From Rozella allomycis CSF55 (lineage: Eukaryota): a DNA stretch of 64,000 bases. The notes under the pieces were generated by a model. The model was not told the DNA's origin, searched no databases, and worked only from the letters and a program-made list of their open reading frames with translations. Location: NCBI GenBank assembly GCA_000442015.1, contig KE560523.1:1-64000 (forward strand), written 5' to 3'. The position numbers and the translations under genes are program-made. Of the stretch, positions 1 through 42,176 are shown piece after piece; the first letter of the stretch is position 1; each line of letters starts with the position of its first letter.

Positions 1-605
1 TCGCAAGAAGACTGGTTTAATTAAAATGGAGGATAATGGAATTGCCGATATATTTGTCCATGGTACAGCAAAAGATCTTTTTTTATCGTATAGGCAATGG
101 TATGTCACTAGACATAGTTGTAGCTCCTCAGTTAACAAATATATTACCATCTGTTGCACCACCTGAAGGAAAGCACCCTTCCGCTGTTGGTGAAAGAAGT
201 TACAATCTTCCTGTAGAGCCTGTCCAAACTGAAGTGGTAGAAATGATAAAAACAGAATCTCAAAAACCTGGAAGGGCATTTATCGTGGAAAGGGTTGAAT
301 GTCGCATCCACGATCTGTCTTTAAGAATCATCGATACAAAGCACGAGTAAATTATTGTCTTGCTTTCTAATCAAAGTTGGCTTTATAGCATTTTAATGCC
401 TTATATTAAAAGCAAAGTTCGTAATTCTATTGAAAAGTCTATTGAACAAAATGTCAGTCAATTGCTATTTAATTTGGATGAAAAAGTCATGGAAAGTGTA
501 AACCCGACAAGTGTGGAAGAAAGGCATCGGTAAAAACTATGTTTGTATCATATTATTAGCATTCTACCTGAATGGGCAAGCACTGCATATGACCCTATGT
601 CTTGA
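1..605 (+). CDS. 3' part of a HAM1-like (DUF4449-type) protein, 5'-truncated by the window
   Basis: Spliced product RKKTGLIKMEDNGIADIFVHGNGMSLDIVV...FIVERVECRIHDLSLRIIDTKHDWLYSILMPYIKSKVRNSIEK resembles the HAM1-like C-terminus; ~30-nt introns (e.g. 63-93); stop at 603-605. Confidence 0.55.
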
Positions 606-1141
606 ATTTATTGTGATTTTAATAAATGTATAATACTCTAACTACGTAATAATAATAATAATCATTTTTAATTATTCTCGTTGTGATTTATTAAAAACTT
701 ACACACCATACTACTTACTAGATGTCTGAGATGGATGCAATGGATGTCCAAACATATGTATTAGANACATTTTAACTTTACTCACTTTTACATAATTATT
801 ATTAAATTTGCAACCCGAACTTTGATTTATTAGGACCATTCTACCATTTGTTGGATCTTGATGAAGCATTCTTAAAGTCCTTAGAATATACTATGCTCAC
901 GACCGCTATAATTAAGCCAAAGGTTGATTCCACAATAATCTTTTCGGTCATTTAGGATTAACTTACGTCATATGGCAAATTACAGTGATTTATTGAGTGG
1001 GTATTCAAAAAATCTATCCAGAAAGAGTACATGCATATTACGCATTTTGGATGATAACGCTGAATGCAAAATGGAAAATATAGCTAAAGCGCCAAACGCT
1101 TTGAAAATCATTGAAAAAGAAGATGCTGAAATTTCATATCT

Positions 1142-1946
1142 TTATTCGATTCTTCTTTTTCTTATCTGTCCTGATTTACTTTCACCTTTTCCTTTTTCAG
1201 ACTTATCAATATCCGTTTTGAATTTTAGTTTTTCTTTTTGATTATGTTTTCTAGTCTTGTGATTGCTAAATAAGAATGTAAACAATGAAAGTGCGACAAC
1301 AAAGAACAGAATAAAGGAAAATACAACTGATATATTTGCGAAAATGATCATCCAATCCCATTGATTAATTGGTTTGGAAAACTCTTTTGCGGTGTCCTAA
1401 ATTTTAAAGAAAACACAGCATGTACCAAAACATTTTGGCCTAACCAACCCACGAATGACATAAAATATCCGAATGGCGAGTAAGGTTGAAAGTATACTGG
1501 CAAGGGAACAAATTTTTCTTTCTGTAAGGCGTCAAGTACATCATCAGCTCTCAGTGTACCGTTGTAGAAGTAAGCGGCGCCATTTTTGATCCTAATTTTA
1601 TCGTATATGTATTTGGTACAAATATATGGAGGGCAAAGTTGTAACAAAGAACCTCGCGGATAAAACTATTACTATAAGACTAATTCCTCCTTACTTTGGT
1701 TTTCTTCAATATCTACATTTAACCTTTTGATGTTTTTGCTTAAGTTTTTGTCAATCTTTTCATATTCAGATTTGAAAGCATTGCAAGCTGCACACCAGTT
1801 TGCATAACTATTTTTGTATCACAAAATATTTACAATTTCACTAGTAATGTGTCTTTCCAAACGTCATGTTTTAAATCATTATTTTTGATATTTTGTATGG
1901 TGCATAAACTTAGACCACAAAGTATCGCGACTACTAACAATTTCAT
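1142..1946 (-). CDS. Thioredoxin-related transmembrane protein (TMX/PDI-like)
   Basis: Signal peptide MKLLVVAILCGLSLC, spliced FYANWCAACNAF (WCxxC), SARFFVTTLPSIY, C-terminal TM helix and basic tail; 4 mini-introns. Confidence 0.8.
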
Positions 1947-1989
1947 ACCTGAAATTTACTAAATATAATCGTTAAAAAATATACATTTA

Positions 1990-4225
1990 TTAAAGTACAA
2001 GATGCCCAATTATTAATTCAATTATATTTTTGAATACCATTGCATTCCCTGATATCCGCCTAAATTTGATGCCGTGAATTTTAAGTAGCCAAACTTTGCA
2101 AATTTCAATTTCAAATACAACTTCCTGATTGACTCCAGAGACATATCGGCAATCAATAACGTAAGATGAATGATGGTTAAACATTAGGTTCTGCTGGGCC
2201 AAAATTTCTATCAATTGATTAATTAAATCATCGGGGGGCTTCACACTAGTCGTATTTGCGGAAAATGCGAATCTAACTGTACGAATCGGAGTTTGTCGAG
2301 GCACTTGAGTCGGAAAAGAAGGTGATATTTCAGGGCTGGGAATATCCGTCTCATAAACCACATTTGTGTTCACTTTTAATGAATCTCTTCTAGAACTATT
2401 GCTCTCTGACCTTGTTTCGAAGGATTTTCTTTGATAAGAATCTGAATTAGAGTTTGATTTTGGGCGCATTTTTGACGTCAGTGAAGCATTAGGTAATTGG
2501 CGCATAGGAGTTGTACCGAAATCTGCTTGAAATGTAAATCTTCGATTCCTTTGCATTGCTGGTTCTGGTGCTGCTAAAGTAAATCTGATATCTTTTTGTT
2601 CATTTGAAGACTTTCGACGAGCGTCAAGATTGTTGCCGCTTGCTAGCATAATGCCTTCCTTTTTATCTTCTAAACCAACATCAAAGTCCGAAGTTTCTGA
2701 CCTTGAACTAATGGTAGAAAATACACTTTGCTTTCTACCAGGAAGGTCAGTTGGCAGTAAGGAAGCTCGCCTGTCCATTGCTTTTATGGCATTCAATGAT
2801 TGCGTTATTGACTGTCTTCTATTTTGAATCATTCCCGGAGGTTGATTGAAGTTATAAATAACAACGTTATCAGACTCATGATTGATGCCTTGAATGCACC
2901 CACTGTATTTTTTATCCAAAGGAGTTTCATCTTCATTTAGAAACTTTGGTGGCAGACGTATCGGGGGGCCATTTTCATCTTTGATCACCCATGGATGATT
3001 TCTTAATTCCTCCATTTTAATTCTCTTTGAAGGATCCCTTACAAAAATTTTATTTAACAAATCAACAAACACTATTAATAACTGAAATGAGATATTACGT
3101 GGCGAAAGATTGTCAATTTTCCTATATTCGCATGATCTTATTTTTTTATATAACTCGCTCAAATTGTCGCCTTTGAAAGGGGCTTTCCCTGTCGCCATTA
3201 TGAACAAAACAACTCCGGAAGACCAAATGTCGCTTGGAGGACCAATATACTTTTCACCACTCACAATTTCAGGTGAAGCATAAAGCGGCGTACCACAAAA
3301 CTATATTAATAGTAACCGAAATTGTTACAGTCCCCAGTAAGTGATTTTTACCAATAAACGATCTACCGAGTCCAAAGTCTGATATTAATATATTATTGTC
3401 TTCAGTAAGCAACAAATTTTCCAGTTTTAAATCATCTTTAAATCGATATTATGTCTTACCTCGATGAACTACACCTGCTTCATGGCAATGGTCGATGGCT
3501 GAAATGATTTGTCGATACAATCGCCTGGAGTCTTTTTCAGTTAATGATTCTTTCGTGGTAATGTAGTCGATCAGCTCTCCACCTCCAGCATATTGCCTAA
3601 AAAATTCTAAAAAAGTTAGTACATTATAACGAACAATTCTGTCGGTGTATCAATTAATTGATAAAGTTTAACTATATTCGGATGATTTAATCTCATTAAT
3701 AACTTAACTTCTCCACTCAAATGCCTTAGGTACTCTGGGACGTAATTTGGATTTGTAATGGAGTATTTTGAATCATCTGCTTTTTTCGAAATAGAATTTA
3801 TCTCTTCAGTATTTGATATATTTTCGTTGGATTTTTTAATATCGCGTTCTTTTGTTTTCAACGTATTCGGTTCGGCTTGAGGTTCGGCTTCCTTCCCCGC
3901 CATATCCTTTACATCCTCTAGAGTATTCTCTTCTGGTATAACTGGCTCTTTTTTCCGGGAGACAACCTTGTCTTCAGAATGAACACTTTTTGAAAAATCA
4001 GATTTCACAGATTTGGAATCAATCTTTTGAGATTTCACGCTTTTATTTTCTGATGCTTCCATGTCAGCTTTCACGAGAACTTTTACAGCTACCTGAATGT
4101 TAAAAATGACCAATGTTCACCTTTTCATTTGTCACAATGTGATAACCAAGCTTTACTTTCGAAAAGGCGCCTTCGCCAATGGTACGACCTAGCTGATAAT
4201 CTCCGACAATTTTTCTCTTAAACAT
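1990..4225 (-). CDS. MARK/Par-1/Kin1-family Ser/Thr kinase with C-terminal KA1 domain
   Basis: GDYQLGRTIGEGAFSKVKLG, VAVK, HPNIVKL, HRD-LKLEN, DFG, FCGTPLYASPE, DIWSSGV; KA1 FEIEICKVWLLKIHGIKFRRISGN. Confidence 0.9.
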
Positions 4226-4955
4226 TTCTTTATAAATATTAGAACTAAAAACGATTGTTTATATCTCCGATGAAACAAATAAATAAAACAATGGCCAATA
4301 ATAGTAATTCGAAATTGATTACAACTTATTTATTATTCATGTATAATTTTCGCATTGCCTTGATCCTATAATTCGCCAACTGTTTTCAAGGTGTTGGTGC
4401 CTTTAGAAATAATGGGGAAGCATACGTTTAATTGAAAGCAAAAGACCTAAGTTCTCTGTCTGATCAATGAAAAGGAAGAAAAAATTGCTTGATATCTTGA
4501 TACCTGCTGATGTAAGATTAAAAATAGAAAACTGGAAAAATGTGAAGGCACGCTGCACGCAGTAAAGATTAAGAATAGTCAGAATCGCTGCTGACCGCTC
4601 CCACTTGAAATTAACGTTTTTAGGAGCATTTGAAATTCAAGTTTGATTTGGCTACTCGTTTACCCAATACCATTTGCCACTCGCTCCGTATTTTGTCATG
4701 ACTGCGGTATATTGGTCGACATAGGGGGCAGAAACGCAATATTGTTTCTTCTGTCAATTTTTTTAATTTCTAGTTACAAAATTGGTCATGATGCGATTGA
4801 TGAGCAAACGATCAATAAAGGTACTTCACTGTTAATAGTCTTTAATAACATATTCATTTTTATGATAAAAATGTATATGTGACATGCATATGTTATCCTT
4901 AGTCTGTAGATATCTTTTTCCATTAAACCATTCTTAAACTGTTTCCAAGGTGAAC

Positions 4956-6342
4956 ATGCCTTTGAACAACCAGAATAGGAAACTGAAAGTGTTTGTGATT
5001 CACGGTGACCCTAAAAAGTATAATCCTATTCTTCCTGGCGGCTATTGGGACGAGGATGATTTTCTTTCCTTGAATAAAGCCAAAGACGCTCTGAGTTCTT
5101 TATCCAATGATTATGATTTCACATACTATTGTAATCACGACACTTTATTAATGGATTTAAAAGAGAATAGAGATAATATAGATCTTGTTCTCCAGGTATG
5201 ATCTAGTTGTATCTTAAACGTAGCTTTGCGACGAAGGATGGTTTAACCACCCGAAAATGGAGATGCATGTCGTTTCATACTTAGAAATGCTCGGAATACC
5301 GTATACTGGGTCTGGTCCGCAATGTCTCGCAACAACCTATGATAAGCAAACGGTACTTGAAATCGCGAAGAGCATCAATGTCCCCATTCCTTTGTCAATT
5401 TTAGTTGAAAATGACAGCGAACTAAAGAACCATGGTTTAGAATACCCTGTAATCGTAAAGCCAAACTCCACAGATGGATCCTTTGGAATCACAGCCAAAN
5501 TAAGAGCATCAATGTCCCCATTCCTTTTTCAATTTTAGTTGAAAATGACAGCGAATTAAAGAACCATGGTTTAGAATATCCTATAATCGTAAAGCCAAAC
5601 TCCACAGATGGATCCTTTGGAATCACAGCCAAAAATGTTTGCAATTCTTATGAAGACCTTCTTATTGCATTAAAATCAATTAGAAGTGAGTTTGGAATTG
5701 ATGGCTCTGTTTTAATCCAAGAATACCTTCCAGGACCTGACATAAATGTTGGTCTTATTGGCAATGAGCCAATTGTATTACCTATAACTGAGGAAGATTA
5801 CTCTTCGTTGCCTGATAATTTACCTAAGATTTGCGGATTTGAAAGCAAAGTAATATTTCTATTCCACAATAATCAGTGGGAAGACTCATCACCTTATTGG
5901 AACATTAAAACCAAACCAACGTCTTTGGACGAAAATAGGCAGAAGATTATAATCGACGCATCCAAGAAACTATTCAAGCGAATTGGTGTCAAAGATTATG
6001 CGAGATTTGATTGGAGACTAGATAGAAATGGTAATCCTAGATTCATTGAAGGTAAAAATAAAAATTATGCATCATGAAGCCAATCCAAATTGTGGTTGGT
6101 GCTGGGATGGGCATCTCCCCAAAACAGCTTCTCTTTGTGGAATAGACTATCCTCAATTCTTCCGCCTCATAATTGAATCTGCATTGGCTAGATATTCACA
6201 ACTTCGAGCGTCGTCATATAACTACAAACTGGTCAAGTCCAAAAATACCACATCTGAATTATCAGGAAAGCCTGTTCCCTTAAATCCTATATCGTCTTCC
6301 ACTTATCTGTTCATAAATGAGCAAAATAAAGTTAAAAATTAA
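4956..6342 (+). CDS. D-alanine--D-alanine ligase-like ATP-grasp enzyme
   Basis: LEMLGIPYTGSG, DKQTV, YPVIVKPNSTDGSFGI, VLIQEYLPG, DYARFDWRLD, FIEANPNCG; introns 5196-5223, 5850-5876, 6052-6079; duplicated segment at N5500. Confidence 0.85.
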
Positions 6343-6405
6343 TTTGCTTACAATGAAATACAGAAATTTTAATGAGAATTTAGTAAATTTAATAGTTATC
6401 TCTTA

Positions 6406-7054
6406 ATGCTAAGCGAAGAAGATGTTTTAGATTATGTAATACAACAGGGTAACAATGAAAACGGACTACCTGATTGTGCAAACAGTGTAGCTGAAAGCAT
6501 AAACCAGGACGAATCTAATCATGATAACCTAGTTTCATTGGAGCTACGTGAGCGCGAAAAAGGCTGCATTAAAATGTTTGAAGAAGGCAGTTGCTCATTA
6601 GATTACTTAATAAATGAGTTTTCATCAATCATCAAGGACCATCCACGTTATGCGTCAGCGTACAACAACAGGTACTGCTTTGATATTTTCAAAACTAGAG
6701 CTCAATGTTTTCGACTTCAAAAACAATGGGAGAAATCATTGAATGATTTGAACAAGGCTATCGAATTCGGAGACATTGAAGTAAAAAGAAAAGTAAGTTA
6801 CCATTTCGNCATTGCAGTAAAAAGAAAAGTAAGTTACAATTTCGCTATTTACCGAGGCTAATTTACAACGTGCTATTGTGAAACATCACTTAAACGATGA
6901 AGAAGGTTCGCATTTGGACTATGAAAATGCGTCTGCTTATGGTGGAGGAAACAATTTTCTTGCAAAGCAAATGGCGGTGAAAACCAACAAATATGCAGCA
7001 ATGTGCAATAGCATGATGGCCGAGTTGATGTCTAAATTATATAAGAATAAATAA
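6406..7054 (+). CDS. TTC36: TPR protein, TTC36-like
   Basis: YASAYNNRAQCFRL TPR and C-terminal KTNKYAAMCNSMMAELM typical of TTC36; N-join at 6809. Confidence 0.75.
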
Positions 7055-7071
7055 AAACGGGGCTTTTATTT

Positions 7072-7784
7072 TTAGAATTTATATATTAGAAACAGAAACA
7101 TACACACAGCACCTACTAACGCCAATATAAGCATATCACGGCGACGTCGTAATCTAATGCGATTAATTAAGCCTTCAACGGCTGGAAGTCTTGCTAGAAA
7201 ATGAATATTCAATGAACTTACTAAGAACGCCAGAAGCAATATTTGATGAAGAAAGTAGTCTTTGTCTTTGAGTATCCAAATTTGCTCTTGTTGCATAAGC
7301 GTTACCTTAAAAAATGCAATATAAGATTACTTTAATAAGTCATCAGCCATTGAATGTGAATTGTCCAATGCCATCCGCTCATCTAGAAGCATCATTTCAT
7401 CTGTTTTATTTCCTCGTACATTTCTGTACTTTAAAATATAGTTATTTACTTGTTGTACGACTTTAAAAGTTCTTGTTCTTCTTTTTTCTGTCTAAGCACA
7501 TCTTGAATTCTTCTAAATTCTTTTTCATAGTTGAATGCACCATCCTTGTGTCTCTGGAGTGTTTTTAAAAGGATAGTGTTTTCTACAGGTAGACTTTCAA
7601 TGTATTGATTCATTTTTGCTATTTGATTATTTAAATTTGATAGGTTGGATATTATTTCTTGCGCCAAAGAATCAGTACCGGATAAATCAGTAGCCATCAA
7701 TGAAGTTATTTTGGATATCTGGTTATCTATAGCAAGTTCGACCATTCTCGTTTCTTTTCGTATACTGTCCCAAGATGTGTTCAT
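7072..7784 (-). CDS. GOS1: Golgi Qb-SNARE Gos1/GOSR1
   Basis: MNTSWDSIRKETRMVE, LQRHKD, ERMALDNSHSMADD..AYATR, RLPAVEGLINRIRLRRRRDMLILALV plus C-terminal TM. Confidence 0.9.
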
Positions 7785-7848
7785 ATGTACTGATTAAACG
7801 ATCCTTTGAGTTTCCGTGACCAGGAATTTTCGGAAACCATATTTTTTG

Positions 7849-10800
7849 ATGTCGAATTTTCTCTACTCTACGATTAATTCTCTGGGGAGTTTGTATCGTC
7901 AATCTAGACATTCAAATTCTCAGCGATCCAGTAAAGCAGCAAAGCTTCCTGTGAGCTCTTTTAAAGATCAAATTATGGATGCCCTTGAAGACAATACTGT
8001 TGTGATCATATCTGGTACTACTGGTAGTGGGAAAGTAGATATATTTGATGGCTTTTATATTAGAGTACTCAAGTCCCCCAGTTTATTTTGGACCATGACA
8101 AGTCGCATGTCAAGATAGCATGTACGCAACCAAGACGATTGGCCGCTGTTTCATTAGCTTTACGTGTAGCTCATGAGAGAAAAGATACTAGCAGGCTTGT
8201 TGGTTATCATATAAGTGGAAAGAATAATTGCTCAAAGGCTACAAAGTTGATGTACATGACAACTGGAGTTTTGTTGGAACAAATCAAGAGTGATCCAAAG
8301 CTTGAGAGATATACGCATATAGTGCTGGATGAAGTTCATGAAAGACATGTGGATGATGATATTTTGCTGTCGTATTTAAAAGAGATTTTAAAAGTGAACA
8401 AGAATCTTAAAATTGTTATTATGTCGGTAAGGATAAATTTATTTGTTTGAAAGGCAACACTTGTCCCTCAAAAATACCAAAACTATTTTTCTGAATTTGG
8501 ATCAGTCCCATTTATTCACATTCCAACAAAGATGCATGAAATAGAAATTGTTTATGTTGAAGATATTTGTGACAAGTTTAAAGCGTCCCATGAAGTAAAG
8601 AGTGGTGTTTTGGAAGCTCCAGACCGACCCATGTTGACTCCATCAAGGAAGAATCTTTTGGCTGATATGATAATGAGCTTACATAAAAGTTTGCCACTAA
8701 ACCAAGCGATTCTTGTTTTTCTATCTGGATTGTCACCAATTTTAGAAATAGCAGATAAGCTGACTTTATATGAGAATTCAGAATCGATGCAGATTCATTT
8801 ATTGCATTCATCTATTACAATTGAAGAACAAGCGCAGATAGTGAGACCCCCAGCCAAAGGAAAGAGAAAAGTTGTTTTATCAACAAATGTCGCTGAAAGC
8901 TCATTGACGATTGCTGATGCTAGGATTGTTATCGACACTTGTTTGAAAAAAGATATGGATTTTGATGTTTCGTTTAATGGATTTTCTTTGAATGAATGTT
9001 GGGTTAGCAAGAATTGTGCAGAACAAAGAAAAGGGAGGGTTGGTAGAACATCGCCAGGGATTGTTTATAGATTGATTACAAAAAATGAATTTGAGAAATT
9101 GAGACAAGAACAACTTCCAGAAATCCAAAGATCTGAACTCTCTAATTGTGTTTTGAGGTGCCTTTCAATTCCATCTCATCCATTTTTTGAAGTTCTATCC
9201 AGCTGTATGGATCCTCCTCTAAATAAACATATAAATGAAGCTTTAAAGACGTTGATTTCTTTAAAAGCTGTTTCTTTTAATAATGGATCTTACTCAGCCA
9301 CTCGACTTGGCCACATCTTATCTACTGTGCCACTTAATGTGAAAAATTGTTTATTGGCTTTGCATGGAATAATATTTGGCGTTGGAGAAGAAGCAATTAT
9401 AGCAGCTTGTATACTTCAATTGAAAAGTGTGTTTATTGAATCACCAGTTTTGGAATTGGAAACATCGAAAGCAATGGCCAGTTTTGGTTCTTCAATTAAA
9501 AGAGATAAAATGGAAATTTCTTCAGATTTAATTTCAAATCTTCGTGCGTATTTATTTTGGAGAGAAAATTATCCTGAAAACGACAAGGAAGAATTTTATT
9601 TGAAATATTTTCTAAGTAAATTCTTTCTACAAGAAGTCCACGATTTAATTATTTTGGTTCGTGAAGGTTTTAGTAAATTTGGTTTATGTGAACCACCAAG
9701 TGACGATGAAAGAGCTAGTTTACACAAGAAATTCAAATCTTTAATGGTTCATTCTAGCCAAGTTGACGATTTCGATAATTTTGATTTCATGGATGATTTT
9801 AATCAACAAGAATCTCAACAAGTTGAAAGTTTTGTTCAAAAATTTAATGAAATTTCTTTTAATCTCTCAAACAAGAAAATTTTCGAAAATGGAAATTCGA
9901 TTTTTCACATTAATGACCCTGGTAGTAGAGTAACCAAAGGGGAAACCATAAAACTGAAAAAGGAACCAAATATTTTTACATTCTCTATTATTCTTTGTGC
10001 TTCATTTTATTCTAATGTTCTTAAATTTGACACTTCTGAAAATCCAGAATCTTGTGCTTTCCCATCTGAATTTGATTTAACACGCTCGGTAGAATTTGGC
10101 GCAGATATTCTCCCTTCTATTCCTGATATGCTTCAATTCTTGAATAATAAAATTTCACCAGTTTCGAAATACTTGATAATCAACAATAGAATTCAAGTGG
10201 AATTCCAAGGTAATTTTACATTCTTTCATTAAATTAGATAACAACAGAATTTGGGACTTTACATTGCCATTTGATAAATCTAAATTTCGCCCTCAAAAGA
10301 ATAACACCTTGGGTTGGAGGGATTATGATTCTGATGAATCTGATTTTGAAGATGATGACATTGAAACTTTTATTCCTTCTGATTCCATTTTCCTTTCTCA
10401 TAAATTGAGGCTTACTTGGAAAGCGGTCAACACGTACAACAGATACATTCCTGGACAAATTTGGTTACCTCGACTATCTTCCATTAGATCAGCTTACAAT
10501 TCGGCTTCTTATGTTCCCAGTTTTCACAAACATTCTTCAGATTCAAAAGTTTTTATTAACAGAATCTCTCTTTGTTATCCATGCATTGTGTCAGACTGCC
10601 ACAAGACTTCGTTCCATTTTATTCCTTGTAAAATGCAAGCAGTCAATCAAGGCTCCCGCTGGTTGGCTCATTTTGTTTCTTGCTTGAAATTGGATTCATT
10701 TTTAGCAGTTAATCCTATTCACGCAGTTTTGTATATTTTATATGGCTCTGATGACAGCTTTACATTCACATTACCATANGCTTTACATTCACACTGCCAT

Positions 10801-10994
10801 ATACAAGTGAAAATTATGACGTTTCTTCTCTTGAATTCTGCAACTCTAGCGTATTTTCCGAAATTAAAAATTTAAAAACTCAAATCGATGCTTTTCTAAC
10901 CGGAGAATCTGACGCACTAGCTCCTCATACACTCGATGATTTTACTGAAAACCAAACAAAACTCGATGGTTTAATTCATGAATTGCTTAAATAA
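7849..10994 (+). CDS. DEAH/RHA RNA helicase, spindle-E/TDRD9-like helicase core
   Basis: GTTGSGKSTQ, TQPRRLAA, YMTTGVLL, DEVHER, MSATL, LHSSITIEEQ, STNVAESS, QRKGRVGR, HA2 region; 3 mini-introns; N-join at 10779. Confidence 0.85.
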
Positions 10995-11078
10995 ATTTAA
11001 TTTATTTACGGTTATTTTAACATGATTATTCTATCAATTTGATATTTGTCGGATGAATTACCCTGGCCAATACTTTTT

Positions 11079-11660
11079 ATGCCTTTAAACGACATTACAA
11101 ACATTGCTTTGAGACATCATCCAAATGTGTTTAAGAACGATAATTACAATAGGAATATCAAAATACAGTCATTGAAAAGAGTTGTGAATGGAACCCATTC
11201 TTCTCCTGCTCCATCAGATTTACAACCTCTATTAACTCACAAGAAATCAAAATCAACAAAACCAAAACTAGAAATATACTCTGATTGCTCTATAAATTTA
11301 AATGTAGATGAGTCGATTCCAAATAATAGTGAACAGCTATTAACATCTTCAACCTCTGTGCTAGAAATTAATCAACCAGAAAACAATAAAGAACCAGAAC
11401 ATCAGCCTATACCGTCAGAGAAGTCAGAGTCAGAGGAATCTATTGATGAAAATCATGAAATCGACGGCAATGATGAAAAATCCACACCACTTCCTGTCAA
11501 TGATGAATTCCGTATAGTCCCAGAAGAAGAAAACATTTATTTTTCAGCAACTCAAGAAAGAAGATTTCCATTAGACAAAATATTTGTCAAGGAAACATCA
11601 ACTGCATTGCCTACAACAGGTTGCGATGCCCACATATTTTCAATGCACATCGCTAAATAA
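11079..11660 (+). CDS. Hypothetical low-complexity protein
   Basis: Open 194-codon frame from the first in-frame ATG, stop followed by AATAAA; no recognisable motif. Confidence 0.45.
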   Translation: MPLNDITNIALRHHPNVFKNDNYNRNIKIQSLKRVVNGTHSSPAPSDLQPLLTHKKSKSTKPKLEIYSDCSINLNVDESIPNNSEQLLTSSTSVLEINQPENNKEPEHQPIPSEKSESEESIDENHEIDGNDEKSTPLPVNDEFRIVPEEENIYFSATQERRFPLDKIFVKETSTALPTTGCDAHIFSMHIAK

Positions 11661-11752
11661 ATAAATAGATAAATAAAATCTAATTTAAATACTGTGGTTC
11701 TATAGTCCTTCATTTCATTTCGCCTTGTTTTGTCTAAGCCATTCAGCCAATC

Positions 11753-12527
11753 ATGTCGGCACCAAGACCTTTAACAGATGAAGAAGTCCAAAATGAAATG
11801 AAAAAAATGGTGGCCTTCATTAAACAAGAAGCGATTGAAAAAGCTCGCGAGATTCAGGTCAAGGCAGATGAAGAGTTTAACATTGAAAAGGCCAAACTCG
11901 TTCGCCAAGAGACTCTGGCAATAGAAGCAAACTATGCAAGAAAATTTAAACAAGCTGAAGTGTCCAGAAAAATGTAAAATCTCATTCTTCGTTTCAACAG
12001 AGCACAATCAACTCACTTTAATAAGGCCAGACTCAAAGTATTACAGACCAGAGACCAAATGATCGAGGAATTATATAACGATGCTAAAAGTCGGTTGCCG
12101 ACACTTGCCAAAGACCATCAGCAATATCAAGCCATTTTGAATGATCTAGTTTTGCAATGCTTCTACCAACTCATGGAGACAAATATTGTCATCCAATGTC
12201 GTAGACAGGATGAAGAGATGGTAAAAAATGCTATCCAATACGCTTGTGAGCAATACAATTCACAGTTGCACAGAAATGTAAATGCAACAATTGATTCTCA
12301 ATATCTTTTTGATACTTGGTAGATAACATTTAAACTTTGTATATTTAGTGCTGGTGGTATTATAGCGTCTGCAAATGATGGAAGAATCAGATGCGCAAAT
12401 ACTTTTGAATCTCGTTTGGAATTGCTCTCGCAACAAGTAAACCATGATTTTAAAATTGGAAAAGATGTTGCCTGATATTCGTTTGATGTTGTTTGGTCCA
12501 TCAGAAAACCGCAAGTTCTTTGATTAA
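11753..12527 (+). CDS. VMA4: V-type ATPase subunit E
   Basis: EMKKMVAFIKQEAIEKAREIQVKADEEFNIEKAKLV ... LFGPSENRKFFD; 3 mini-introns. Confidence 0.97.
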
Positions 12528-12717
12528 TAATAAAGGAATCACTTTTTCTGTGTAATGTTGTGAATAATATATTTGATTTCCTTTACTGCATACTTACTTT
12601 GTAATATTTATTAATGATCACAAAATTTATCTTAAAAAGTGCCTTTATTAGTTGTATTTGAATTGCTAGAGAGTTTCATTTCGACTCAGCCTCGGCTGTA
12701 GCATTAATCATACAAAA

Positions 12718-13408
12718 ATGGCTGCAAAAGCATCAAATAAGAAAAGAAAAAAATCTGAAGTTGATGAAAAGTTAGAAAATGGAAATTGTGATACAAAAAC
12801 GAATGTTTCAACTGAAGAACAACCTCTAGCTGAACTTGAAGCAACGTCGTTACCAATAGTTTTTCAATGTTTAAAATGCAAGACAATAGTATCTGATTCA
12901 ATATCTTGGAATGGCATCGATATGAATCTCATGCTGATGAGTGTGAAATCAATAACGCCATTTGCGCGTAAATCGGATAAAACTAAATCAGATTCTTCAA
13001 AAAAGTATTTATCATTTGCTTATGTTATAGTAAATACATGGATGTGGAGTGCGGTAATTGTGGAGTTGGCATTGGAAAATATTATATCGAAACAGAGCCT
13101 GACATGGCGGACCTTTTCAGGTATGAAAGATATTTTATGGACATAAGAGGTCAATATGCATTAGAAGTTTCTAAAATTTTAACGTAATTCAATATTAAAT
13201 GTCTTCATTGAAGATATCAACTGGGGATGTATCTAAATAACCCAAAAGAAGCGGAAGAAACCTACGAAAGTCTTTTTGGGTGTACTCATGACGGCGAAAC
13301 AGAAGAAAATACTAAAGTAATTAATGTACAAATGCAAGATAGGTTATCGATAGGATAATTAAAATAGAAGAACGATTAAATCAACTTGAAAAACGGTTAA
13401 TAGATTGA
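12718..13408 (+). CDS. MIS18: Mis18 (Yippee-Mis18 zinc-binding) centromere protein
   Basis: IVFQCLKCKTIVSDS ... VECGNCGVGIGKYY ... LTYQLG and a C-terminal coiled coil. Confidence 0.75.
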
Positions 13409-13436
13409 TTAATAAACTCGCTAACAAAAAAATTCA

Positions 13437-13787
13437 TTACTCTTTCAGAAGTTTCTGTAATTTCCCACTGTTGAAAGCTTCATAAGTATCGTCGCATCCG
13501 CCTAGATGATTTCCCTTGATGAAAATATTTGGGACAGTTGTTTGGCCTGTCATTTTGGCCAGCTCGTTTTGTATTTCAGAACCGTTGCCTTTTTTAAAAT
13601 TAATACCAATATATACTTTCTTGGTCAAGTTCTAATGCAAAGTACGAAACATTGATGTTCTCAAACAACTTTTTCGCTTTTTTGCAGTAAGGGCAATAAG
13701 ATTTGCTAAATATCTTTGCTTTCATTTAGATTTGCTTATTACCATTACGTTATTTTCAGCTATTAACTTTTTCACTAGTGCGTTCAT
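13437..13787 (-). CDS. Dithiol glutaredoxin
   Basis: Spliced IFSKSYCPYCKKAK, TGQTTVPNIFIKGNHLGGCDD. Confidence 0.95.
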
Positions 13788-13855
13788 TTGACCAGCTTGT
13801 ACAAGCCACAACAATTAGAATTCCTTTTGATGTTTATGTAAGGGAAATTGTTGCT

Positions 13856-16287
13856 ATGCCAGAAGCGAAAGTAAAGAGGTAGAATGCAAAATGTTAAAAT
13901 GAAAGAAAAATTAAGCCTGGAAAAATTGATGTGCATCCAACCGATGATGCGATAATTGTAAACTATACAGTTGAAACACAACTGATTGATGAGCAAGATA
14001 TGGTCCAGGTGCAAAAATCAAGACAGCAAAAGTGGTAAGTATATATTTTAAGAGTTTATAGTATAAATGTGACAAATTTAAAAGATTTCGAATCTGATTT
14101 TGCGTCATTGGCATTGGAGATTGTTGAGCAATCTAAATTGATTCACCCATCAAAAGTAAAGGAGGTTGAACAACTACTTTATTACCTTTTGAAAAGAAAG
14201 AAGGAATCTTTGATGGGTAAATTTAAAGAGTTAATTTGATGTTAGAGACGGAGCAATTGTCCGCATTGGTATCTCAGATTTCAAAGACGAATTCAAATTC
14301 TGATGAGTTTATAAATGTATTTTAGTTCTTTAAATTTAAGAGGTGAATTTAGAGAACTTGGATGAATATATTGATCAGTTGTATGAAGATCTTGGCCAAA
14401 AGGTTGCAGGTACGAAATGCTTGTATTTTCTGGCTCACACGATGGATAATTTGTATGAATTGATTGTCAATGGTAAATGGATTATATTGCTAAAAGAAGA
14501 ATCATTTATGAATGCCGTTACGAGAGTATTATTGGAAGATGGAAGAAAGAGTATTGATTTGACATTTAACATTTGTTTTATTTTTTCTAATTTTTCATTA
14601 TATTCAGATTTCCATTCGATTATTCATCAATATAAATTGATTGATTTGATGTTGAAAACTTTTAATTTTGAAATGAAGCGTGGCGAAGTTATTTTAAGGG
14701 AAGGGTCATCGAAACAAAAAGCGTTACAAAAGCATAACAAATTGATGTGTGGTAAAATAAAGAATATACAGAAATTAGTGTTAATAAATTTCTTCTTGAA
14801 TGTTAGTGAAGATATCTCGGTTGAAATGTCACTAGCAAAAGACTCGATGATTTCTAGATTATTGACCCTTGTTTTAAGAGAAAATTCAGACCTTCAGATT
14901 ATTTCATTAATTTATTTAACAAAACTCTGCGTATTTCAAGAAAACATTAAAGTTTTGATTAATGATTCTGAATCTCTATGTAATTCTATTGAGAGTTTAT
15001 TTTCTTCAAAATCAATCGTAGAGATTATTGAATAGAAATAATTGTAGGAGGTTTTAAAAATTTCCGTTCGATTTCTTTTAAATATTTGTCATGAAGTTCA
15101 AATCAGATTAATTTTATCGAGATTGAATATTCTTCCAAAAATAATCCAAATTTTAAACTATCCGATTTCACCAGAACCAATTCTTTGTTTATTGTACTTG
15201 TTGAGTATTGATGACAAGGCTAAATCGTTCTTTGCGTTTACTGAGATTGTCCCATTTGTAAACCAATTTTAATATTGTTGAATTAGTTGATGAAAAATAT
15301 TTTAGAATGCCCAGATCAAAAATTACCATTTGAGCTTATGGGTTTATCAATAAATATTGCTTCAAACCCACAAGTGGCAGAATTGATTGTTCAAAATAAC
15401 GGTCTAAAGTTCTTAATAAAGAAAGCAACAAAAACTCTTGATAATCTTTTACTTAAATTTATTCGCAATTTATGCCAACATGATCTCACTAAATCTCTAA
15501 TTTTGGTAACATTTATTCTACTTTATTACAGGATTATCTTGATGAATTAATGATTCTTCTTGTTCATGAAACTAATCAAGATGTTTTTATAGAACTATTA
15601 GGAATATTAGCAGCTATAGACATTGAAGGAATGGATTATGCGAAATTGGTAGACAACTATGATCTACTTGCATTTATAAACCAACTAATCATAAACAATG
15701 AATGTGATGATGACATTATATTGGAAGCTGTTATTTTCTTTGGAGTTTTACTACGTAAACATTTCATTCACTTTAAACCATTTAGAAGATGAGGCTGTGG
15801 TATTGAAAGTATTGCAGTCTAAAATCTTTGATAGTCTTTTCACTCTTTTATCTAGAAAGAAATATGATGAAGAAATTATATTTCAAGTCATTTATGCTTT
15901 TNTTCAAGTTATTTATGCTTTTTACAATATTCTTCTATTTGAATTCTCTCATCCAAAAATTATTGAAAGCAAAGGTATCTTTCCACATTAATATTATTAG
16001 ATTTGACCACCACACTGCTTGATTTCATGTATCACAACCGTCAAGATATCAGAATATTATGCGACACTTGTTTAGATATCATTGCCGTAAATTGTCACGT
16101 CCTTTGTTTCTTATAGGATGTCGATCAAGAACAACATGAAAAAATTAAACAGCAAAGATTCCATTGGCACAATCAAGAATGGATAAACTGTGTTGAAAAC
16201 AACATGGAAGAAGAATTTTCAGATAACGACGTTGATGATGAACTTTACTTTGGTCAAAATTTTATGCTGGAAGGACCAGATTTTTGA
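13856..16287 (+). CDS. KIFAP3: Kinesin-associated protein 3 (IFT kinesin-2 accessory subunit)
   Basis: KRKIKPGKIDVHPTDDAIIVNY, KLIHPSKVKEVEQLLYYL, LDEYIDQLYED, EDGRKSIDL, RFHWHNQEW; more than 10 mini-introns. Confidence 0.92.
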
Positions 16288-16416
16288 CTCTAATAAAAAC
16301 CATTTTTGCCATGAATGGTTTTATGTATATGATAAAATTGTTTTGTGCTTATGTTCAAATTGTTTTCGTGATTTGATTAAACATAGCAAATAATCGTTAC
16401 TCAGCCACATATTTTT

Positions 16417-17421
16417 ATGCGTTGTTCAAACTGTCCCGAACCCTCTTGCAAATACAAGTGCATCAATTGCCATAACTATACGTAATTATTAAATATCTTT
16501 CAAGATAGTTGTTCATTAAAATGTTTCAAGTTACACAAGAACACATGCGATGGAAAAGTTGTGCAAAATACGATGCACTTGGAACAAGAAGAGACCAATA
16601 TGAACCACCAAATTACTTCGTGTGATACAAATGCACAGACAAATGATTCGGAAAGCTTAAATGATCACTCTACTGTTCATACTACTCTAGTCAATGACGA
16701 AACAACCATTCAACCTAATCCAGTACCCACTACATATTTTGACGACGAATCTTCATCTGGTGAAGATGATAACATTGTTGAAATTAATTCCTTGATGAAT
16801 CAACAAGGCCAAGGTATTTTCTTACATACTCGAATATTCAGATCCCCTATCTTTAACTGGACAAAATATAGATTTTATCAGCTCTATCAATGTGGAAATG
16901 CAAGATCGTTTCTCAAACCAAGATGCTACTATTATTGCAAACTCTATAAATAATTCTTCTAGAGCTCCAACAAACACCTTACTTTTAAGAAACAAGCCAA
17001 CTAAATGCAAAGTCTGTTCTGTAACTACAGGAAGATACAAATGTCCTAAATGTAGATCTATAATGTAAATTGTAATCTTCTTTATCACAAGTTGTTCCCT
17101 AAATTGCATGAAGGCTCATGAAGATACCGACTGTTTTCTTGATATGCCTCTTACAGAAGAACCAGATGTACCCGAAGAAGATCATAGTGCTGACAACCTT
17201 TTGACAGAAGAAACACGAGAAAATTTGCGTAACTTTACCTTCTTTTTGAAATTCTAGTCAATTCAAAAATAATCGCGTCATATCTTAAAAACGAGTCTTT
17301 AAAAGATTTGATCAAAGAAATTCGTAACAGTGAATCGCCAAAAGAAGTCTTGATGCGCGAATTCAAAAATAACACGCAGGGCATCCAAGATTTTGTTTGC
17401 GAAATCTTGAAATTTTTGTAA
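16417..17421 (+). CDS. ZNHIT3/Hit1-like protein with two zf-HIT domains
   Basis: CSNCPEPSCKYKCINCHNYTCSLKCFKLH at the N-terminus, acidic linker, CKVCSVTTGRYKCPKCRSIICSLNCMKAH, then a Hit1-like helical C-terminus; continuous frame after removing 4 mini-introns. Confidence 0.75.
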
Positions 17422-17478
17422 TAAATCCACTTTTTCCTTTGCTTTGTTTGTTTATCGGAGTTCGTTTGTTATTAATTT

Positions 17479-18231
17479 ATGACATCGAATCAAGAATACA
17501 AAGGCGCGGGAGAGGCTAAAAAGAACACGTAATATTGAATACCGTGTTTAATATAGTGTATTTGTAAAGGTTGGGATGGTTGGTGATAGTCAAATTGGCA
17601 AAACATCACTAATGGTTAAATATGTAGAGGGAACATTCGACGAAGACTACATTCAAACACTCGGTAAAAGGAAGTTATTTTAATAAAAGGTGTTAATTTT
17701 ATGGAAAAGACAATTTCGATTCGTAACACGGAAATCACATTCTCTATTTGGGATCTAGGAGGTACAAAATTTGTATAGTCTACATTAGGCCAGAAAGAAT
17801 TCATCAATATGTTACCATTAGTATGCAATGACGCTATAGCGATTTTGTTTATGTTTGATCTGTCACGAAAATCAACATTGAATAGCATCAAGGAATGGTA
17901 TAGACAGGCTCGAGGATTCAACAAAGTAAAAATTGTACATTGTGAAAATTCTAGTCGGCAATTCCCTTTTTGATCGGAACTAAATACGACCAATTTACTC
18001 AATTGTCCCGGGAAGAACAAGAAGATGTCACCATGCAGGTAAACTCGTGAATGTTTAGGAAATCAGTCTCGAAGATTCGCAAAAGCAATGAAGGCGCCAT
18101 TGATATTCTGTAGCAGCGCTAGAAATATAAATGTACAAAAAATTTTCAAGATTGTATTGAGCAAAGCATTTGATCTAAAATGTTCTATACCCCGGGAAGA
18201 AACAATCGGTGCACCCATAATTGAATATTAA
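17479..18231 (+). CDS. TEM1: Tem1/Spg1 septation/mitotic-exit GTPase (missed by the ORF track)
   Basis: [66 protein letters not shown]; 5 mini-introns. Confidence 0.95.
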
Positions 18232-18280
18232 TAATAATAAATATAGCAATAAGTAAAATAATAAACTTGTAAAGATAAAT

Positions 18281-19037
18281 TTAATCTTGACGACATTTTA
18301 AGGTTCTAGTGATAACTTTATCTGCTGTACTAATTTAATCACGTGTTATCAATTTACATTATGTAGACAACAGCACCCCAACCAGATAAGGCATCTCTAT
18401 CGACTGCATTTACTAATGCTTGGGAGACTATTTCAAACAGTTCTTCTGGTTCCTAACTTGTAACTTCAACGTAAAATTACCAAGTCAGGTTCATAGAGTG
18501 ATTCACACATACCATACAAATTGGGACCACAAGTACCACCAACAACAAAGTCTTTGGCAAAATTTATGCACCCAATAACATCCATTGAACAAATAAATGG
18601 TTCATTTGTCTTGGAATTCAGTCCTGCAACAATTGGCTCACAGTAATATGGTCCGAAACGTTTTTCATACAGAGTAGAGGAGACCATGTTTGCAAAAGTA
18701 ACTGGTTCAATATCGCGTTCGTGATTCAAACTATACATATTGACTTTGTACCTAAAAGTTTCGCTCAAAGTAATAACGTCAGTCGCTAGACCCTAAAAAT
18801 TGTAGTAAATGTATTGTACACTCAAACCCAAGTAAAGTTTATCATGTATAGGGAACACCTAGATAATTAAACTAGTAAAAACATACTTTAGGAAATTCAG
18901 TGCTGACTGTGAGGGCTTGTTGGCCCAAACGTTTATCGGATGCAATAGCCACACACCCCTTTCCTTTCATAGCTACAACAGCACCTCCGTTATATTGCAT
19001 GATAGACTAAATTATAAAGTTGAGGGATCTTTACCAT
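18281..19037 (-). CDS. PUP3: 20S proteasome subunit beta-3
   Basis: [49 protein letters not shown]-terminal LKCRQD. Confidence 0.96.
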
Positions 19038-19356
19038 TTGGATGATTAAGAATTTTCGTAATTGAAGGGGGGGAGAGTTTAACAATTTCAGAAGTAAATT
19101 CGGCATGGCGCATCTTTAAAATTGATATTTTTTTAATTAAATAATTTAAATCTAGCGACATGATACATTTAATTCATGTCATTTTAAAATTGTGGCGAAA
19201 ATGCAGTGGTAATCCATCATTCGAAGTTTTAAGTTTATAACTTTATTGCACGTTTGCACTTAATACAAGGATGTGATAGCATTGCCTATTAATTTGGATT
19301 TTTTGTATTGAAACCCAAATTAAGAAACCTGAAATTTCAAAGTCCCAACTCCGATT

Positions 19357-21473
<2,117 letters not shown>

Positions 21474-27140: not shown

Positions 27141-28405
27141 ATGCAAGATATAATCCCAAAGGTGCTTATGAAATATGTAAGATATTTTAGAGTGTATGTT
27201 CTACAAATTGCCAAATATTTTCTGCATCTTCTACTTCAAACTTTGAGTGGATATTTACCGCTGGTGAAGATGGTAACATAAGAGTATATGATTTTTTTAA
27301 CTCTGTAAACTCTGCACATCCCATTCCACAATCTTTAAGATCACAATATTTTGAAACAATAGACTCTGTAAGATTATGGATGAAATGCTTATAGAATATT
27401 GTCAACTTGTCAGATTATTGCCTATATGATTCAAATAAGGCAAGTACGTAAAATATCTTACTATAATAGTCCAAATACCAGTGTTCTCAATCTTATCGCA
27501 AAAGGACGCGGCGTTTCTTGCTGCTGGAATGGAGGTAAAAGAGGATTGTAGTTTACGTAGAATGGTGACATTCATCTTAGCACTATTAGATTTGACCGCG
27601 GTAAAGTGTTTCACACATTAAGCGGGCATCAATCAACGGTTTCAGAGTTGGCCTTTTTGGACAATGAAACAAAATTATTGAGCGGATCCTGGGATAAAAA
27701 TATATCTGTAAAGTTTGTTTCATCAATAATATGAAGTTGTGGGATTTAGATACAGGTTCTTGCATCAAGACTTACACAAAGCAACATGTTTCACAAATAT
27801 CTGCGATTGATGTTTTAAATGAAAATCTCTTTCTAAGTGCAGGTGTTGATGGTTTTGTTTGTCTTTGGGATAGTCGCACGTCACAGGTTGCTCACTTGGG
27901 GAAGGATTTGAAATCCACTTGGTGTTTCACAGTAAAAGATGAGGGTAATATTTAAAAAATAGGCATCTTGGGCTCGTAACGGGGCGGCCATAGTTGTAGG
28001 AAGAAAGAATGGTTACTGTAAGTATAGATAAAATCTATTTTGATAGGTGAGATTTGGGACTCAAGAAAAACTGATTCCCCCGTTCACATTATTAAATGCC
28101 CGTTAGATACTGGCGCATTACACAAAGCAAAATTCTATCGCAATAATGATACCCTAGTCCTGTAATTTTTATTTCATTTACTGAGTAGGGCCTACCATGA
28201 TTTTTTGCGTTTGTACTCCTTGTCAAAAGAGGAGTTTTACATTGTTCCAGGTTATGCTACTACTGCAATAAGTTCTTTACGTATCCTATATATTTTTCTT
28301 TTAATAGTCGTCGATGAATCGAATGAATTCGTAGTGTGCACATCAGGCGACAGAGGTTGGAAATCGAATTCAACAAATCAAATAGTTTTTTATGTGCATA
28401 ATTAG
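27141..28405 (+). CDS. SPT8: SAGA subunit Spt8-like WD40 protein
   Basis: DIIP..WIFTAGEDGNIRVYD, PVFSILSQ..AGMENGDIHLSTIRFDRG, LLSGSWDKNISLWDLDTG, IVPG..TSGDRGW motifs match Spt8. Confidence 0.8.
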
Positions 28406-40020: not shown

Positions 40021-42176
40021 TTAAAAATCAAATATCTTTTTTATTCTTTCTACTACTTGCCTTTCTTTATCAGAGCAACAATCATTGAGTTTAATCCTCT
40101 CGCTACATGTCTCCAAGTTCACTTTCTTCGTCGCACTAAAAACTTCCCGCGCTTTTTCACATTCTTCTTTACTCACAACTTGGCCATTAAAAGTAGTCAA
40201 ATCAAACTCATTCAAAATAACCATCTTCAAAAAATTATTCTTTACAACTTCATTATGTTGACTGTTAATGATCATCTCTTCTACAGTTGATGGCACATTA
40301 TCCAAATACTTCATCTATCATATACTCCAATCATTTTTACTTGCACAAGCCTATCAAATAAATTAAACGAAAATTCTATTGTCTTTAGGCTGCTAAATCT
40401 TTCCAATTTTAGTCTATTGAAAACAGACAACTCCACATAACTAGCACCAATTCTTTTAACACTCTCAGATTCAAATGATACCAGCACATCATTAGTAACA
40501 TTGCCATATCTATTTGTAAGATAAACGCACTTTACAAGAACAATGAATCTCCTTGTTGATCCGCGTACCAAAACGAACTTGCATTTGTATCATCTTGTAT
40601 CCCCAGCATCTTTTTAAAAAACATCTCTCTAATCTTTTGCAGCATGGAATTCCTTAATTAATACTGCCATCAACTTACTTTTCATCTCTCCTTTGCATCT
40701 CTTTCTCTTTGGCTCTCTCCTTTAATATATCTCGTTTCGCCTCGCGTTCTGCTAACCTTCGCTCCTCCTCACTTACCTTTCTACTTTCCAACATTTTCAA
40801 ATGTTTCAATCCATAAATCACAAAGTTTTTATAGTTTGGCTCGTTTTTGCTTATCGGGTTGCCGTAGAGTGATAATTCTGTTCTTAATCAATGCGGGGGT
40901 TGTTTACCAATCAATCCATTCAACTTGAAGAGACCGAGTATATTCTTCATTTCGCTAATCTTGTTATCAGCCAATAATAGTCGTCTTAAACTAGGTAATC
41001 CAATACTTTGTTTGATTTCATTGATATGATTGTTCTTGAGATTTAAATCAACTAGAGTCGAACAAGGCGTAAATATTTGGAAATCTTGTATACAGTTACT
41101 CTCCAGGTTTAACACTTTCAAACTCGTCAAATTTTCTAATCCGCCTGGAATCACTCCTGGATACATTTACTTATATATTGGATGTTATTTCTTGCCAAAC
41201 ACACATTTTCTAAATGTGACATTCCTGTAATATCCATTCTCTCTATCAAATTATCTGAAAGGTGTAAAACTCGAATATACTTCATTCTGTTCAAATCACT
41301 AATGTCTTTTTCATTAAATTCACTGCATTTACATTAATCTTGTTGCACGAAGCATTTAAGTGTATTAAAAACATAAAAGAAGCAATGTTTTGTAAATCAA
41401 CAAGCTGGTTGTTTTTCACGAAAAGAGTCTTGATCTCATTGCTCGATTCAATCATGGGAATAGACATTAAAGTGAAATAGAATCTTTTACTTTAAGCTTT
41501 TGATTTGAGCAGTCTAGCTTGTCCGATACTTTGGGTAGAGCTTCGTACTTGGAAAAGGTAGTGAATGCGTCCTCGACAGGCATCTGTAAAGTGGCATCAG
41601 CAGTTTTACCTGTGGAAAAATCATCAATTTTTTAGTTTCAGTGATACTTGATTCTATAGTGTTAAAGGACGATGTAGATGAAGCGGACATGCATCTAGAA
41701 GGGCCACTACTTTTCTTTCTGCTAGTTTTGTCAAATGATGTTATTGGGCGATAATTTTCTTGACGGGTTCTATTTCGCACTTTTAGATAATCTTGATAGC
41801 TTGATGCAAATGTCAAAGATGTTTGTATTTGTTTAAATAATATGCCTTTTGACTTGCTCTTTTTTGGTTCTTTTTTCTTTTTCATATTAGCTTACCAGAA
41901 GCGATGCCGGTCCTTTCTCGTGACATTTCTGCTGGCTTGATGACACTCTTTGTCAACTGATCATCTTGATTACTGTCTTGTTTTTGTATCTTTTCAATAT
42001 GTCGTCAACACTACTTTTTTCTTTTTTTCGTTGATTCTTTTGGTACCATGATATTTTCTTACATTCAATAAGTAATCCAATGCTGAATCTACATTCCTTG
42101 TGTTCAATGTAGTAAAAATAGCTTTTTCGCCATCATCATTTAATATCAGATTTTCTCTTCTCTTATGTAAAGACAT
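40021..42176 (-). CDS. LRRC49: LRRC49-like leucine-rich-repeat protein (tubulin polyglutamylase/centriolar)
   Basis: LRRs (LKVLNLESNCI, LRRLLLADNKI), ELSLYGNPI..RKVSEEERR, GDSLFLYG and C-terminal NEVV..FNGQVVSKEE..AREVF resemble LRRC49; 5' extent uncertain. Confidence 0.7.

Follow-up and report, generated by a model that had tools for sequence, protein, structure and literature searches.

A putative 27-nt GT-TG intron in the catalytic loop of a MARK/Par-1-type kinase gene of Rozella allomycis

We analyzed a 64,000-nt stretch of the Rozella allomycis CSF55 genome (contig KE560523.1 of GenBank assembly GCA_000442015.1, positions 1 to 64,000), referred to as the window. Its minus strand carries, at 1990..4225, a gene for a MARK/Par-1/Kin1-type Ser/Thr kinase with a C-terminal KA1 domain. 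Within this gene, the segment 3433..3459 is probably (we estimate a probability of about 0.65) a constitutive 27-nt GT-TG intron, in which an AG located too close to the donor is bypassed. Excision of this intron would produce the canonical catalytic loop HRDLKLEN, and the extra aspartate in both public protein models, which end the intron at the AG, is most likely spurious. We infer the use of the TG in the cell, and distance as the reason why the AG is ignored, from the local sequence, from homology, from the narrow distribution of intron lengths in the window and from the skipping of early AGs in other predicted introns.

On the minus strand, the site reads CATCGAG/GTAAGACATAATATCGATTTAAAG(3436)ATG(3433)/ATTTAAAA, or, divided into codons, GTT CAT CGA G/GTAAGACATAATATCGATTTAAAGATG/AT TTA AAA CTG GAA AAT (slashes mark splice boundaries here and below). 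The donor G is at position 3459. An AG (3436..3437) ends at 3436 and defines an intron of 24 nt, and a TG dinucleotide (3433..3434, context GATG/A), the proposed 3' splice site, ends at 3433 and defines an intron of 27 nt. The longer intron is in phase 1 and splits the Asp codon of HRD (G/AT). As computed from the coordinates, splicing at the AG yields HRDDLKLEN and splicing at the TG yields HRDLKLEN. A preliminary description of this DNA had reported both outcomes, the canonical AAG with an insertion in the loop and the GT-TG intron with a restored loop, and the minus-strand sequence confirms them; its preference for the TG acceptor is supported by the present analysis, short of proof. Retention of the intron would lead to an in-frame TAA after HRGKT, and the stretch 3433-3459 therefore cannot be coding. 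The donor GTAAGA is a 5' splice site of the U2-type GT class, and no U12-type box (ATATCC or GTATCC) is present.

Other intron boundaries were considered and rejected. For the AG at 3436, there is no alternative donor GT 26-31 nt upstream, and the more distant donors at 3472 or 3469 would create introns of 37 or 34 nt, with VVHR deleted or the frame broken. Downstream, no AG ends anywhere between +26 and +59 from the donor. The next AG, ending at +60, would delete DLKLENLLLTE and with it the catalytic loop. A cut at +30, the only other in-frame end within 26-31 nt, would leave an intron ending in TT and give HRVKLEN. The sequence at this intron allows no boundary besides the AG at 3436 and the TG at 3433.

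The two public models, EPZ36535.1 (P0027), which is the window's own model, and RKP18109.1 (P0001), both splice at the AG and read VVHRDDLKLEN. If they are correct, splicing occurs at the AG at +24 and nowhere else, and HRDDLK belongs to a pseudokinase or an atypical enzyme, perhaps as the result of a slippage duplication of GAT (AAA-GAT-GAT-TTA). Apart from the choice made in both models, this alternative can draw on the AAAG, a typical acceptor context, and on the GATGAT tandem visible in the genomic sequence. Homology argues against it. Among 26 homologue hits, 7 did not extend over the catalytic loop. HRD(L/I)K was present in 18 of the 19 that did, and the extra D was found only in Rozella's own model RKP18109.1, so that none of the 18 other homologues carries the insertion. 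A profile built from 14 homologues gave 544.2 bits for the TG isoform and 537.9 bits for the AG isoform, a drop of 6.3 bits (for both isoforms in this comparison, intron 5 was taken out with a shift of one base, as 3073-3099). When aligned by HMMER to MARK1 (6c9d_A) and to Schizosaccharomyces pombe Ssp2 (3h4j_B), the protein likewise showed one Asp of the pair facing a gap of a single residue.

The remaining catalytic motifs point in the same direction. EPZ36535.1 keeps the GEGAFSKV glycine loop (GxGxxS), VAVK, HRD, DFG and GTPLYASPE (with the (A/S)PE motif). Pseudokinases are defined by loss of the VAIK Lys, the HRD Asp or the DFG Asp; all three are retained, and only the spacing between HRD and LK is in question. 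The canonical loop HRDLKxxN is present with the TG junction and absent with the AG junction. Because the other catalytic motifs are intact, a degenerate pseudokinase, which the preliminary description had considered, is unlikely.

Intron rules were derived from the window with our own Viterbi gene finder, which used codon log-odds from 13 long open reading frames and introns of the form GT...AG. With a flat length prior of 20-45 nt, 129 introns were predicted. A length of 26-31 nt was found for 109 of them (33, 20, 20, 19, 11 and 6 introns of 26, 27, 28, 29, 30 and 31 nt, respectively), one intron measured 25 nt and seven were shorter than 26 nt. The short introns of this run all gave way to frame-keeping solutions of at least 26 nt. 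With the trained gene finder, genes scoring at least 25 contained 140 introns, 136 of them of 26-31 nt and none of 25 nt. Outside this class were one intron each of 20, 24, 32 and 41 nt. The intron of 20 nt is an artefact, caused by an N at 58123 inside a normal 28-nt intron (58142-58115, minus strand), and the intron of 24 nt, the sole one of this length, is the kinase intron. Cut at the AG, the kinase intron lies outside the 26-31-nt class; cut at the TG, with 27 nt, it lies within.

This result bears further on the AG as the only 3' splice site. Apart from the N artefact, the kinase intron would then be the sole intron below 26 nt among the 140, and the slippage history would additionally require an ancestral 24-nt intron, breaking the same length floor. 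Together with the homologues, the profile scores and the retained motifs, this makes the AG-only alternative quite unlikely in our judgement.

The 140 introns have the donor consensus GTA(A), with A in 97% of cases at +3 and in 69% at +4, and the acceptor consensus (A)(A/T)AG, with A in 40% at -3 and in 57% at -4. A branch-site motif was not apparent in the predicted introns: there was no positional peak of TRAY or TAAY, and k-mer enrichment was weak (TTTGA 14 vs 5.6). The density of genes in the window was very high, with about 50 predicted genes in 64 kb.

The choice of the acceptor followed a simple pattern. In 135 of the 136 introns of 26-31 nt, the used end was the first AG at least 26 nt from the donor; the kinase intron departs from this behaviour. 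Earlier AGs were passed over. A skipped AG ending at +20 to +25 was present in 25 of the 136 introns, approximately the rate in intron interiors. Nineteen of these 25 early AGs are out of frame with the used site and are followed by a median of 7 open codons, vs 76 after the used AG. The other six are in frame; two of them would lead to a stop at once and four are undecidable. The earlier statement on skipped +24 AGs in other parts of the window was borne out by four gene-finder predictions (14317-14342, 18480-18453, 50137-50109 and 28162-28188), which have an AG at +24 yet use a later AG. If the +24 AG were used in the first three, a stop would follow after 1, 7 and 11 codons, respectively. 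Because early AGs, including those at +24, are skipped elsewhere, the AG at 3436 sits where the AGs of the window are ignored, and it is probably bypassed in the cell.

Among these introns, the one at 14317-14342 (plus strand) is a striking case of position beating sequence in acceptor choice. This 26-nt intron ends in GAG despite a good AAG at +24. The frame demands the GAG, which is followed by 230 open codons, vs 1 after the AAG. A G at -3, as in this acceptor, is found in about 1% of introns.

The behaviour of early AGs also bears on the alternative that both sites of the kinase intron are used. The AG and the TG would then form a tandem, with HRDLK as the active product and HRDDLK as an impaired one, possibly under regulation as a switch, which the preliminary description had likewise mentioned. 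The AG and the TG lie in frame at a distance of 3 nt, and human TG 3' splice sites (Szafranski et al., 2007; PMC2374985) are described as occurring only with an AG within 28 nt, in ratios that can be tissue-specific. In the window, AGs at +20 to +25 are apparently ignored in 25 of 136 introns, and most of them would be frame-lethal if used. That they are ignored suggests that the spliceosome cannot reach the +24 site in the first place, and we therefore consider use of both sites unlikely. The predicted tryptic peptides of the two forms, DLK and DDLK, are too short to tell the isoforms apart. A digest of the Glu-C type is required, for which the predicted peptides are AGVVHRDLKLE (TG form) and AGVVHRDDLKLE (AG form).

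The contigs and the RNA run compared with the window (X1, X5, X6 and X10) were examined over positions 1-20000, with X5 and X6 not covering 3433-3459. None of these runs showed a joint the size of an intron. Fifteen sequencing runs were considered for positions 1500-11000, and none of those containing the stretch is recorded as RNA. The preliminary description had proposed a check for a genomic indel at the acceptor. The X1 contig (3,168 nt, word depth 245) spans 1139-4304 without a gap and with one difference, at 3958. Elsewhere, X1 shows many differences from the window and is therefore at least partly independent. A second public assembly, the source of RKP18109.1, encodes the same residues after the AG, HRDDLK. 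The agreement of the X1 contig and the second assembly makes a sequence error unlikely.

These data also speak to the possibility that the locus is defective, either because the assembly or its consensus is in error at the acceptor or because of a recent AG-to-TG mutation in a gene without a working product. Such a defect would fit with the 12 single N's in the window, with its many differences from the run contigs, and with two awkward junctions in a nearby leucine-rich-repeat (LRR) gene, which is described below. It is very unlikely given the agreement with the X1 contig, the same residues in the model from the second assembly, and a frame of 699 codons with all motifs intact. In two other places, contigs skip bases around an N of the window: X1, X5 and X6 skip 36 bases at 6803-6838 (N at 6809), and X5 skips 134 bases at 5423-5556 (N at 5500). 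Differences in assembly or small repeats are the probable cause in both places.

If the TG is used, splicing of the kinase intron may proceed as follows. The normal GTAAG 5' end would be recognized as usual. The 3' end would be set largely by distance, in that the spliceosome would be unable to reach a 3' splice site closer than about 26 nt and would normally take the first AG within the reachable span. The AG at +24 would be too close for use. With no AG in the allowed span, the second catalytic step would use the G at +27, with a T before it. Structures of the second step show the terminal G of the intron paired with its first G and the A at -2 in contact with the branch adenosine, so that position -2 would tolerate a change more readily. 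One substitution, A to T, in an AAG that ancestrally stood at +27 could have given rise to the TG. The mRNA would then encode an ordinary MARK/Par-1-type kinase with the canonical HRDLKLEN loop, which would probably be active. More broadly, the spliceosome of Rozella may act as a ruler that, from 26 nt after the donor onwards, takes the first acceptable site, so that a TG would serve as the sole constitutive 3' splice site when the 26-31-nt span is devoid of an AG. We put this generalization forward tentatively, at somewhat less than even odds.

Several points weigh against a constitutive TG acceptor in the kinase gene. RNA run X10 provided only pieces of 18-26 nt over the compared positions, and use of the TG is thus deduced from the DNA. 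The length rule was obtained from our own unvalidated predictions in a single 64-kb window. The AAAG at +24 conforms to the typical acceptor context of Rozella, and only its position speaks against it. The GATGAT may be a 3-nt slippage duplication that truly adds an Asp, and with an AG and a TG so close together and in frame, mixed use is conceivable. When non-AG dinucleotides were allowed to compete in the gene finder, TG was picked 3 times, AA 8 times, TT 5 times and TA 4 times, in a crude and non-discriminating comparison with gains of at most 5 units per site, in which several sites accepted almost any dinucleotide. TGs at 26 nt or more from the donor and just upstream of the used AG were not depleted: 6 were seen, and the rate in intron interiors predicts 11.5 for the full set of 224 positions, only about 64 of which can hold a TG. 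Therefore, the TG is at best a fallback. Five of these six TGs are in frame with the used AG, but we dropped this bias as evidence, as 41 of the 64 possible positions are in frame anyway.

A second TG-ending candidate, the 26-nt GTAAAAGATTCTATTTCACTTTAATG (GT...AATG), is located at 41465..41490 on the minus strand in the LRR gene. It splits ...LDCSNQKLK from SIPMIESSNEIKTLFVKNNQL..., and the joined sequence LDCSNQKLK/SIPMIESS is a typical leucine-rich-repeat start. Retention would lead to a stop, no AG fits the frame, and the allowed span contains no AG. When the TG intron is allowed, two AG-only gene predictions fuse into one LRR gene of 621 codons. That this gene requires a TG-ending intron to stay whole counts in favour of the TG reading of the kinase intron. 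The public model O9G_001542 (P0028, 288 aa) starts at an internal Met, and its LRR_9 match begins only at position 63 of 175. Alternatively, the locus may contain two genes, the second of which would begin at the Met of SIPMIESS.

In the LRR gene, the junction that follows, at 41306-41348 (minus strand), is ambiguous. A canonical 26-nt GTG...CAG intron gives LNAS/EFNEKDISDL; to match the repeat consensus LNASCNKINDISDL, either a 26-nt GT...AA intron or an error of one base next to the A-run would be required instead. A third candidate for a TG end is found near the end of the window (63888-63915, minus strand), where a 28-nt GTAACAATTTCTTTCTTTATATATTCTG ending in CTG would join the open frame ...DYKYGYFK to LRDNCLLRFTSDESE; the alternative is that the gene starts at the ATG at 63928.

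TG 3' splice sites are known from human genes. According to Szafranski et al. (2007; PMC2374985), U2-type TG 3' splice sites in 36 genes have been validated, are conserved and are sometimes tissue-specific, and GNAS and TSPYL2 are given as examples in a further report (PMC4176328). Like these sites, the Rozella kinase intron has a U2-type GT 5' end, a TG 3' end and an AG nearby, 3 nt upstream. The differences concern the role of the TG. In the human cases, as described there, it is a minor alternative in long introns, whereas in Rozella a 27-nt intron would depend on it mainly or exclusively. As stated in PMC2374985, the human TG is "never the sole 3' splice site", with an AG always within 28 nt, a further point against a constitutive TG site. 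In Rozella, the neighbouring AG at +24 is below the 26-nt floor and looks unusable by distance, and the LRR case at 41465-41490 is without any AG in the allowed span. A TG as sole constitutive 3' splice site would, if true, go beyond the TG-beside-AG rule described for human genes. Moreover, human TG use has been validated in RNA, whereas TG use in Rozella is read from sequence.

Tandem acceptors of the NAGNAG type consist of two in-frame 3' splice sites 3 nt apart, which lead to proteins differing by one residue. The AG/TG pair of the kinase gene resembles them in spacing and frame, but its second site is a TG and its first site lies below the apparent minimum intron length. Very short introns with a sharp length minimum occur in Paramecium, in Stentor and in the Bigelowiella nucleomorph. 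Rozella is similar to such short-intron genomes in its narrow length class (26-31 nt), weak internal signals and hard lower bound. We know of no report of routine TG 3' ends in these systems or in the short introns of microsporidia. One report (PMC6349667) describes short microsporidian introns and two R. allomycis S23 introns of about 30 nt. Among the papers that our literature search brought up, we found no description of the nuclear splice-site rules of Rozella, the 26-31-nt class, the first-AG behaviour or TG acceptors; PMC5701793 makes no mention of introns.

The kinase gene consists of six exons, with the ATG at 4225 and the stop codon at 1992-1990. The reading is open over 699/700 codons, and the introns measure 28, 26, 24 or 27, 28 and 27 nt. 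All coordinates are on the minus strand. Intron 1 (4093..4120, 28 nt, GTG...CAG) gives the junction NEK/VAVKVL, in agreement with homologues. Intron 2 (3597..3622, 26 nt, GTACTAAC...TTTAG) skips an AG at +16. Exon 3 (3460..3596) encodes QYAGGGEL...HCHEAGVVHR and supplies the G of the split codon. Exon 4 (AT TTA AAA ..., DLKLENLLL...DFGLGR...LLGT) extends over 3329..3432 if the TG is used and starts at 3435 if the AG is used. Intron 4 (3301..3328, 28 nt) gives LLGT/FCGTPLYASPE, where homologues read TFCGTP without an insert. Intron 5 (3072..3098, 27 nt) is spliced in both public models (NLSP/LFVDLL). It contains no in-frame stop, so that its retention would silently add nine residues; not all introns in the window with a length divisible by three carry a stop.

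At intron 4, the two public models differ. EPZ36535.1 reads LLGTVTISFCGTP at 3301-3328, which implies a 16-nt intron (3316-3301). The sequence LLGT/FCGTP, found in RKP18109.1 and all homologues, fits the 28-nt intron. EPZ36535.1 seems to be wrong here too, again by way of an intron shorter than 26 nt.

Pfam searches with EPZ36535.1 gave Pkinase (PF00069) with 213 bits (cut-off 31.7) and KA1 (PF02149) with 50.8 bits (cut-off 23). The closest named homologues are Par-1/MARK/CAMKL kinases from Capsaspora and chytrids, and the best match among solved structures is human MARK1 (6c9d_A, E 3.8e-56). The 90% cluster of the protein consists of two NCBI records, RKP18109.1 (5,837-nt contig) and EPZ36535.1 (703 aa, 114,481-nt contig). 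The last exon matches a "Pkinase-domain-containing protein, partial" of Rozella allomycis CSF55 with 97% identity. Relatives in metagenomes (4 loci, 35-40% identity) are too distant for a comparison of intron positions. With its Pkinase and C-terminal KA1 domains, the protein resembles the MARK/Par-1/Kin1 branch of CAMKL kinases. It differs in a low-complexity insert of about 130 residues between VAVK and helix C and, as publicly annotated, in the extra Asp in HRDLK.

If the TG is used, EPZ36535.1 and RKP18109.1 are both wrong by one residue in the catalytic loop, and surveys of kinomes could misclassify the Rozella kinase as aberrant. The assumption that introns end only in AG would also split or truncate other Rozella genes, as in the case of the public LRR model, which is without its first repeats. 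To what is known of TG acceptors, the kinase case would add the rule of the first AG at 26 nt or more as the reason why a nearer AG goes unused. If some one to two in 100 mini-introns of a genome end in TG (two candidates beside 140 AG introns) and early AGs are ignored by distance, that genome would be a simple natural test bed for site choice in the second step of splicing, and it would call for caution in the annotation of other early-diverging fungi and relatives of microsporidia. Should the spliceosome indeed act as a ruler and accept TG as a sole site, Rozella would offer a natural example of less strict recognition of the A at -2, perhaps tied to the reduction of the spliceosome on the road to Microsporidia.
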